Shown here piece by piece: positions 4,693-4,788 of a stretch of 64,000 nucleotides of DNA. The notes under the pieces were generated by a model, which saw only the letters and a program-made list of their open reading frames with translations, was not told where the DNA came from and ran no database searches. Made by a program: the position numbers and the translations under genes. This DNA is from Candidatus Omnitrophota bacterium (GTDB taxonomy: Bacteria > Omnitrophota > Gorgyraeia > DTHP01). Numbering within the stretch: position 1 is the first letter of the stretch; each line of letters starts with the position of its first letter. The stretch lies in the NCBI GenBank assembly GCA_023819145.1, contig JAMWCW010000003.1, positions 4,321 through 68,320 of the forward strand, read 5' to 3'.

Positions 4693-4788
4693 ATGCCCTG
4701 TGGAAGGAAGCGTAAGTTAAGAAAAATTAAGACCCATAAGAGAAAAAAGAGAAGAAGAGCACTCCGCCACAGAAAGAAAGAGTGGTAG
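4693..4788 (+). CDS. tiny Arg/Lys-rich protein, possible ribosomal protein bS22-like (AURKAIP1/COX24-type)
   Basis: 31 aa MPCGRKRKLRKIKTHKRKKRRRALRHRKKEW; GGAG RBS about 7 nt upstream of ATG at 4693; resembles mycobacterial bS22 pattern from memory. Confidence 0.45.
   Translation: MPCGRKRKLRKIKTHKRKKRRRALRHRKKEW

Follow-up and report, generated by a model that had tools for sequence, protein, structure and literature searches.

The ribosomal protein bS22, as seen in solved ribosomes, is a bent, basic helix that occupies a pocket of 16S rRNA formed by h2, h27, h44 and h45, contacts H68/H70 of 23S rRNA on subunit joining, and lies near the decoding centre. In the ribosome structures 8FMW (of a 70S ribosome), 7JIL and 9I5V, cryo-EM density between h44 and h45 was modelled as this protein. 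The bS22 of Borrelia (Borreliella) burgdorferi (bb0822, 8FMW chain V) fills the pocket of h2, h27, h44 and h45 and touches H68, and in that organism its gene, with zero transposon insertions, counts as a candidate essential gene. Tryptic proteomics in the Borrelia study detected all the ribosomal proteins but bS22. The Bacteroidota proteins (Fjoh_1533 of Flavobacterium johnsoniae, 7JIL chain 5; Porphyromonas gingivalis, 9I5V chain 10) are inserted between h44 and h45 and contact H70. Actinobacterial bS22, of the Mycobacterium smegmatis type, and mitochondrial mS38/AURKAIP1/Cox24 likewise fill this rRNA pocket with a small helix of basic character; mS38 is much longer, and only its C-terminal part corresponds to bS22. 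In M. smegmatis, deletion of the bS22 gene raises susceptibility to kanamycin, and Lys-16 contacts the backbone of h44. Eukaryotic eL41, again a minute and highly basic protein made of one helix, takes up the corresponding pocket of the small subunit at the interface, but it is shorter (24 residues) and unbent, and whether it is related to bS22 by homology or by convergence is debated. The authors of the Borrelia study predicted that bS22 would appear in other bacteria. Our literature search returned no report pairing bS22 with Omnitrophota.

Here we describe an open reading frame (ORF) of 31 codons that very probably encodes small-subunit ribosomal protein bS22 in a member of this phylum. The ORF lies on the plus strand at 4693-4788 of the window, by which we mean the whole 64-kb stretch of DNA that was analysed, and runs from an ATG at 4693-4695 to a TAG at 4786-4788, specifying MPCGRKRKLRKIKTHKRKKRRRALRHRKKEW. 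These coordinates are exactly those of the original prediction, and the GGAG ribosome-binding site that it placed ahead of the ATG is present as AAGGAG (Table 1). Its statement that Arg and Lys exceed 60 percent of the peptide was slightly too high: the count is 18/31, or 58%, and only the inclusion of His brings the share to 64.5%.

Table 1. Position and evidence for the ORF, its neighbours and other translation-related genes of the window
Feature	Position	Strand	Evidence or remark
hisG (ATP phosphoribosyltransferase)	1507-2388	+	Pfam HisG and HisG_C; conserved upstream neighbour in the lineage
645-aa ORF between hisG and the bS22 ORF	2496-4433	+	Without Pfam match
Intergenic region 5' of the bS22 ORF	4434-4678	+	Exists because the 645-aa ORF separates hisG and bS22
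Shine-Dalgarno AAGGAG	4679-4684	+	8 nt 5' of ATG; read from the sequence
Probable bS22 CDS	4693-4788	+	31 aa plus TAG; PDB phmmer, shuffles, family HMM, codon conservation
TPR-repeat protein with lipoprotein-type signal peptide (…FLGC)	4825-6354	+	Pfam TPR families; signal peptide read from the sequence
Split transketolase, two ORFs	6441-7268 and 7364-8296	+	N-terminal thiamine-diphosphate-binding half; pyrimidine-binding plus C-terminal half
tRNA-Gln	9702-9774
bL25 (two-domain Ctc form)	12018-12725	+	Other ribosomal protein gene in the window
bS18	14125-14370	+	Other ribosomal protein gene in the window
bL9	14372-14815	+	Other ribosomal protein gene in the window
bS21	32827-33006	+	Other ribosomal protein gene in the window
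bS20	60276-60560	-	Other ribosomal protein gene in the window

Similarity to ribosome-bound bS22

When the peptide was compared with all PDB chains by phmmer at E ≤10, only three matches were returned, and all three are bS22: 8fmw_V of B. burgdorferi (E 1.1e-7, 22 of 28 positions identical), 7jil_5 of F. johnsoniae (E 1.9e-5, 20/29) and 9i5v_10 of P. gingivalis (E 0.0076, 18/29). Each alignment begins at residue 1 and proceeds in register without gaps. E-values can mislead for peptides of low complexity, and we therefore permuted the peptide 20,000 times with its composition kept. The best identity of any shuffle to any of the three references was 14-16 residues, and none of the 20,000 came near the observed 22, 20 and 18. 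The resemblance to bS22 suggested by the original prediction is thus borne out by in-register matches to structure-proven members of the family, and also by a reading frame that is kept in relatives, as described below.

The window peptide and its Borrelia counterpart are both about 30 aa long, share an identical N-terminus (MPCGRKRKL.KI.THKRKK), and are both unannotated in their genomes. They come from different phyla and differ in start codon, which is GUG in Borrelia and an ATG with a strong Shine-Dalgarno sequence in the window, and in their C-termini, that of the window peptide being three residues longer and ending in Glu-Trp. The Bacteroidota proteins fall in the same length class and share the motif MP.G[KR]KRK..K[IVM].THKRKK…RHKKK, Cys3 being replaced by Ser or Asn in F. 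johnsoniae and P. gingivalis but present in many other Bacteroidota; their genes lack a Shine-Dalgarno sequence and have other neighbours, whereas that of the window is preceded by GGAG. Direct identity between the window peptide and actinobacterial bS22 is only 19%, and we found no sequence match between the window peptide and eL41.

In size and character the peptide fits the bS22 class: at 31 aa it is within the range of about 28-35 residues, extremely basic and predicted to be helical. AlphaFold2 returned a single helix over residues 5-30 with a mean pLDDT of 91.8; a helix being the default prediction for such a peptide, the model agrees with bS22 but is weak evidence for it. A Foldseek search of the PDB with the predicted helix gave no matches, and a single helix of 31 residues is probably too short for this method. 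The ORF also stands apart within the window. The whole window has 282 ORFs that begin with ATG and reach 25 aa or more, and this one has the highest fraction of Lys plus Arg (0.58, with 0.42 for the runner-up); of 35,489 stop-free segments of 31 residues, just 9 contain 18 or more Lys and Arg, all 9 of them overlapping this ORF.

Family members and conservation downstream of hisG

Family members were sought with a degenerate DNA pattern for MPCG[RK]KRK-x5-THKRKK, scanned against one genome per GTDB species. The scan matched at least 120 loci, and all 120 of those listed are complete ORFs of 29-35 aa that belong to one family. The matches listed include many Bacteroidota, Ignavibacteria, Chlorobiota, Rhodothermales, Neomarinimicrobiota, Latescibacterota, Cloacimonadota and WOR-3, as well as a Treponema and metagenome-assembled genomes (MAGs) labelled Omnitrophota and Planctomycetales; this roll of phyla is a lower bound and not a census. 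Among the same matches, Bacteroidota copies lack a Shine-Dalgarno sequence, as fits known translation initiation in Bacteroidota, and most other loci carry GGAG. The data suggest that bS22 is widespread, in line with the prediction made from Borrelia. The family itself is already known; what is new here is a member in a phylum for which we found no bS22 report.

Among the matches listed, the window peptide is nearest to an Omnitrophota subgroup exemplified by MPCGRKRKRRKIKTHKRKKMRRKLRHLKKRDWG. We define this Omnitrophota-type subgroup by an MPCG N-terminus, a …LRH.KK… core, a Trp-containing C-terminal extension (…KKR[AD]W[GAS] in the subgroup) and the gene order hisG, bS22, TPR lipoprotein, split transketolase. 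The window peptide qualifies as a member, although it ends in …RKKEW (31 aa) whereas its Omnitrophota-type relatives end in …LKKR[AD]WG (33 aa), and although a 645-aa ORF separates its gene from hisG.

Two of the matching contigs carry labels at odds with their sequences. CALPIT020000020.1, labelled as a Streptomyces griseus MAG (L031), and CAZPPM010000123.1, labelled as an uncultured Citrobacter MAG (L073), contain bS22 of Bacteroidota type with an A-rich upstream region and no Shine-Dalgarno sequence, and the peptides are identical to those of loci labelled Chitinophagaceae. Probably these contigs are mis-binned or the MAGs mislabelled.

Because the pattern fixes 19 codons, substitution counts on loci selected by it would be partly circular. 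We therefore assembled a set of 80 metagenome loci chosen solely by similarity to the HisG of the window, with no use of the bS22 pattern, and applied to them and to the window a family HMM trained without the window sequence. On the window, this HMM gave the ORF 50.8 bits (E 1.2e-13); the second-best segment had an E-value of 7.4, and no further copy was found in the window. Loci were considered assessable if their HisG was ≥60% identical and the sequence extended far enough downstream (n=29). In 25 of these 29, the micro-ORF directly follows hisG, mostly within about 25 nt, in agreement with the conservation among relatives that had been named as a check on the original prediction. In the remaining four loci (L136, L144, L147 and L152; HisG identity 60-64%), no bS22-like ORF comes after hisG, so the linkage to hisG, or the bS22 gene itself, is not universal. 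At L136, the lipoprotein gene directly follows hisG.

The hisG-anchored genes are under purifying selection in the frame of the ORF. Across 20 of them, the third position varies in 27 of 28 codons, compared with 16 for the first position and 14 for the second. The synonymous sites are saturated, the non-synonymous proportion is about 0.2, and pN/pS is about 0.23, a value for qualitative use only since the Nei-Gojobori-style site counts give pS >1 for some pairs. The start codon and Shine-Dalgarno sequence are likewise kept on the plus strand in relatives, and in syntenic loci of the Omnitrophota type the GGAG-type motifs have equal spacing. A longer in-frame version of the ORF, of 65 aa from a TTG at 4591, appears in the ORF listing and was rejected: in most relatives just 3-13 codons are open 5' of the Met of MPCG, and ATG 4693 is therefore the start.

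Gene order is conserved as well. Ten loci of the Omnitrophota type share the order hisG, bS22, TPR protein, transketolase N-terminal half, transketolase C-terminal half and GHMP kinase; six of them are labelled Candidatus Omnitrophota (L005, L007, L024, L027, L069 and L086) and four Planctomycetales or Planctomycetia (L006, L055, L075 and L091). HisG is 62-72% identical in eight syntenic loci, the transketolase halves reach 73-75%, and the TPR gene has tblastn matches 3' of bS22 in L005, L006, L007, L024, L027, L055, L075 and L086. The split of transketolase is kept in the syntenic Omnitrophota loci. The shared gene order and protein identities of 72-75% speak for an Omnitrophota origin of the window.

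In relatives, hisG ends about 0-25 nt before bS22, whereas in the window the 645-aa ORF stands between them. This ORF has an N-terminal hydrophobic segment, roughly ten internal repeats of about 35-40 residues (…LG..N…F.ESP..F..LIE.I.S.G…) and, near the C-terminus, a zinc-peptidase-like HELAHH (HExxH) motif. Since it has no tblastn counterpart in the 120 pattern-matched loci listed and hisG abuts bS22 in the syntenic loci, it looks like a lineage-specific insertion.

A consensus promoter scan of 4434-4692 gave no match on the plus strand; visual inspection picks out TTGCTT-N17-TAAAAT (4591-4619), a weak promoter candidate that falls under the threshold of the scan. Only 36 nt separate the stop codon from the TPR gene, and a scan of 4300-5000 found no terminator-like site. 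As no terminator lies between them, the ORF and the TPR lipoprotein gene are probably co-transcribed. Two repeats bracket the ORF: a perfect inverted repeat of 11 nt (4623-4633 and 4803-4813) and a direct repeat of 15 nt with 87% identity (4648-4662 and 4811-4825). We considered and rejected a processing stem or other RNA structure here, given that folding of 4615-4845 was unremarkable (z -0.95) and the repeats are probably due to chance in AT-rich sequence.

The wider setting is a housekeeping chromosomal region with several ribosomal protein genes (Table 1); genes for Pth, SSB and Prs are also present, and there are no rRNA genes in the 64-kb window. bS21 and the putative bS22 co-occur in the window, as bS21 and bS22 do in the ribosomes of Borrelia and Flavobacterium.

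Alternative readings of the locus

We considered whether the ORF could be something other than a bS22 gene. The strand is rich in A+T and in purines (GC 0.36-0.41, with positive GC and AT skew), and such sequence yields frames rich in Lys and Arg as well as long open stretches on the antisense strand, so that an intergenic run of AAG, AGA and AAA might stay open for 31 codons by chance. Yet this is the sole ORF of its kind in 64 kb, its identity to bS22 lies far above that of the composition-matched shuffles, and frame, length and start are kept at loci where hisG is 60-68% identical and synonymous change is saturated; a chance origin is refuted in practice, and we give it almost no credence. 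A real gene on the opposite strand, with the plus-strand ORF as its shadow, is just as hard to believe. There is indeed a TTG-initiated minus-strand frame of 91 aa (4545-4820) that spans the whole region, but in 19 relatives the open antisense stretch ranges from 7 to 142 aa in an inconsistent frame, and the codon-position variability, the start codon and the Shine-Dalgarno sequence all follow the plus strand.

Two further explanations accept the ORF as translated and dispute its product. The short gap to the next gene, uninterrupted by a terminator, and the conserved order of hisG, micro-ORF and TPR gene are what one might see if the ORF were a regulatory leader (uORF) controlling the TPR lipoprotein and transketolase genes, with a peptide that has no function of its own. 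However, leaders preserve a few codons or stalling motifs rather than 70-80% identity over their full length to a ribosome-bound protein across phyla; the family also occurs in Bacteroidota and other phyla at loci without tblastn synteny to hisG or the other neighbours, and the RNA around the ORF folds unremarkably, as noted above. We regard a leader peptide as very improbable. It is also quite unlikely, if slightly less so, that the peptide merely resembles bS22 and acts elsewhere, as a nucleoid- or RNA-binding protein, a protamine-like peptide, a small toxin or an antimicrobial. Very basic helices can bind any nucleic acid, the function is assigned here from sequence, and one related peptide matched a type I toxin model, albeit with an E-value of 2.2 that makes the match meaningless. 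Against this, the nearest experimentally characterised sequences are all ribosome-bound bS22, and the gene occurs once, among housekeeping genes, with no antitoxin-like or mobile-element surroundings. A gene for bS22 therefore remains our preferred reading of the ORF.

bS22 types, proposed role and annotation

The slot after hisG holds a graded series of N-termini that extends into the more distant of the anchored loci: MPCGRKRK, MPNLRKKRRKK (L141), MSNLRKKRRKK (L140 and L143), MGSLKKRRK (L177) and MGSVIKKRRKKMSKHKHRK (L148), with GSIKKKRR following a GTG start in L149. The L148 peptide passes the curated cut-offs of both bS22 profiles, NCBIfam NF047430 (ribo_bS22; 44.4 bits, cut-off 34) and Pfam PF08213 (COX24_C; 37.8 bits, cut-off 23). 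L149 (28.1 bits) and L140 (23.4 bits) pass PF08213, and L141 and L177 fall slightly under its cut-off. The MPCG, intermediate and mycobacterial types all align without gaps. Through the shared hisG slot and transitive similarity, the window ORF is thus tied to the family as defined by the curated profiles, and the series provides evidence, at the level of sequence, that MPCG-type and mycobacterial MGSVIKK-type bS22 are homologous and not mere structural look-alikes.

A broader reading, to which we give somewhat less than even credence, is that bS22 is one ancient, vertically inherited family across much of the bacterial tree, in which the MPCG and MGSVIKK forms would be orthologues bridged by extant intermediates in the hisG slot and the lineage of E. 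coli, Bacillus and Thermus would have lost the protein. The family would then span Bacteroidota, Ignavibacteriota, Chlorobiota, Rhodothermales, Marinimicrobia, Latescibacterota, Cloacimonadota, WOR-3, Omnitrophota, other PVC-labelled lineages, Spirochaetota and Actinobacteriota. If so, bS22 would be systematically invisible to current annotation profiles, and the view that it shares an ancestor with mS38, perhaps also with eL41, would gain support.

By homology with the solved ribosomes, the window peptide is probably incorporated into the 30S subunit and would act there as bS22 does elsewhere. It would be translated from its own Shine-Dalgarno site on a transcript that probably runs on into the TPR lipoprotein gene, and would fold as a helix only once inserted in the h2/h27/h44/h45 pocket of 16S rRNA. 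There it would touch H68/H70 of 23S rRNA at the subunit interface, near both the decoding centre and the aminoglycoside site, and would be expected to neutralise the charge of the phosphates, to stabilise h44 and to form an additional contact between the subunits. Because bS22 adjoins the site of aminoglycosides and, in mycobacteria, modulates susceptibility to kanamycin, its true distribution matters for ribosome diversity and for susceptibility to antibiotics. For the window itself the result is an ordinary one, adding one more ribosomal protein gene.

A practical consequence concerns annotation. Neither PF08213 nor NF047430 matched the window peptide at E-values up to 10. The same searches, however, found no match for the structure-proven bS22 of Borrelia and Flavobacterium in Pfam or NCBIfam, and P. 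gingivalis bS22 reached 11.7 bits on PF08213, under its cut-off of 23. Only the M. smegmatis type passed (PF08213, 46.2 bits; NF047430, 62.6 bits); we take the sequence used for this control to be M. smegmatis bS22, an assumption supported by its strong scores on both models. The two profiles describe the actinobacterial and mitochondrial branch only, and because they miss solved bS22 of Borrelia and Flavobacterium, a negative result is uninformative for the branch of the window peptide. The profile search that had been named as a check on the original prediction therefore came out negative but is invalid as a refutation.

The expectation that genes this small escape gene callers held in part. 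The exact window peptide is absent from a collection of 15 billion proteins and from a gene-position index, but its 33-aa Omnitrophota relatives are called, all recorded names being "hypothetical protein". Bacteroidota copies mostly carry the same name, with an occasional "AURKAIP1/COX24 domain-containing protein" among them. When 1.84 billion representative proteins were searched by phmmer, a single match was returned at E ≤0.001 (E 6.5e-4), the query being too short for a database of this size, which illustrates how little of the family standard searches pick up. The bS22 type of Bacteroidota, Spirochaetes and Omnitrophota thus escapes NF047430 and PF08213 and is left uncalled or "hypothetical protein" in very many genomes, whereas a simple profile built from the sequences gathered here recovers it cleanly. 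One protein cluster (90%) of 29-31-aa Bacteroidota bS22 also holds two proteins named "phosphoenolpyruvate carboxylase", of 579 aa (P0038) and 976 aa (P0039), which could be gene calls that fuse bS22 with an adjacent ppc or could reflect a clustering artefact.
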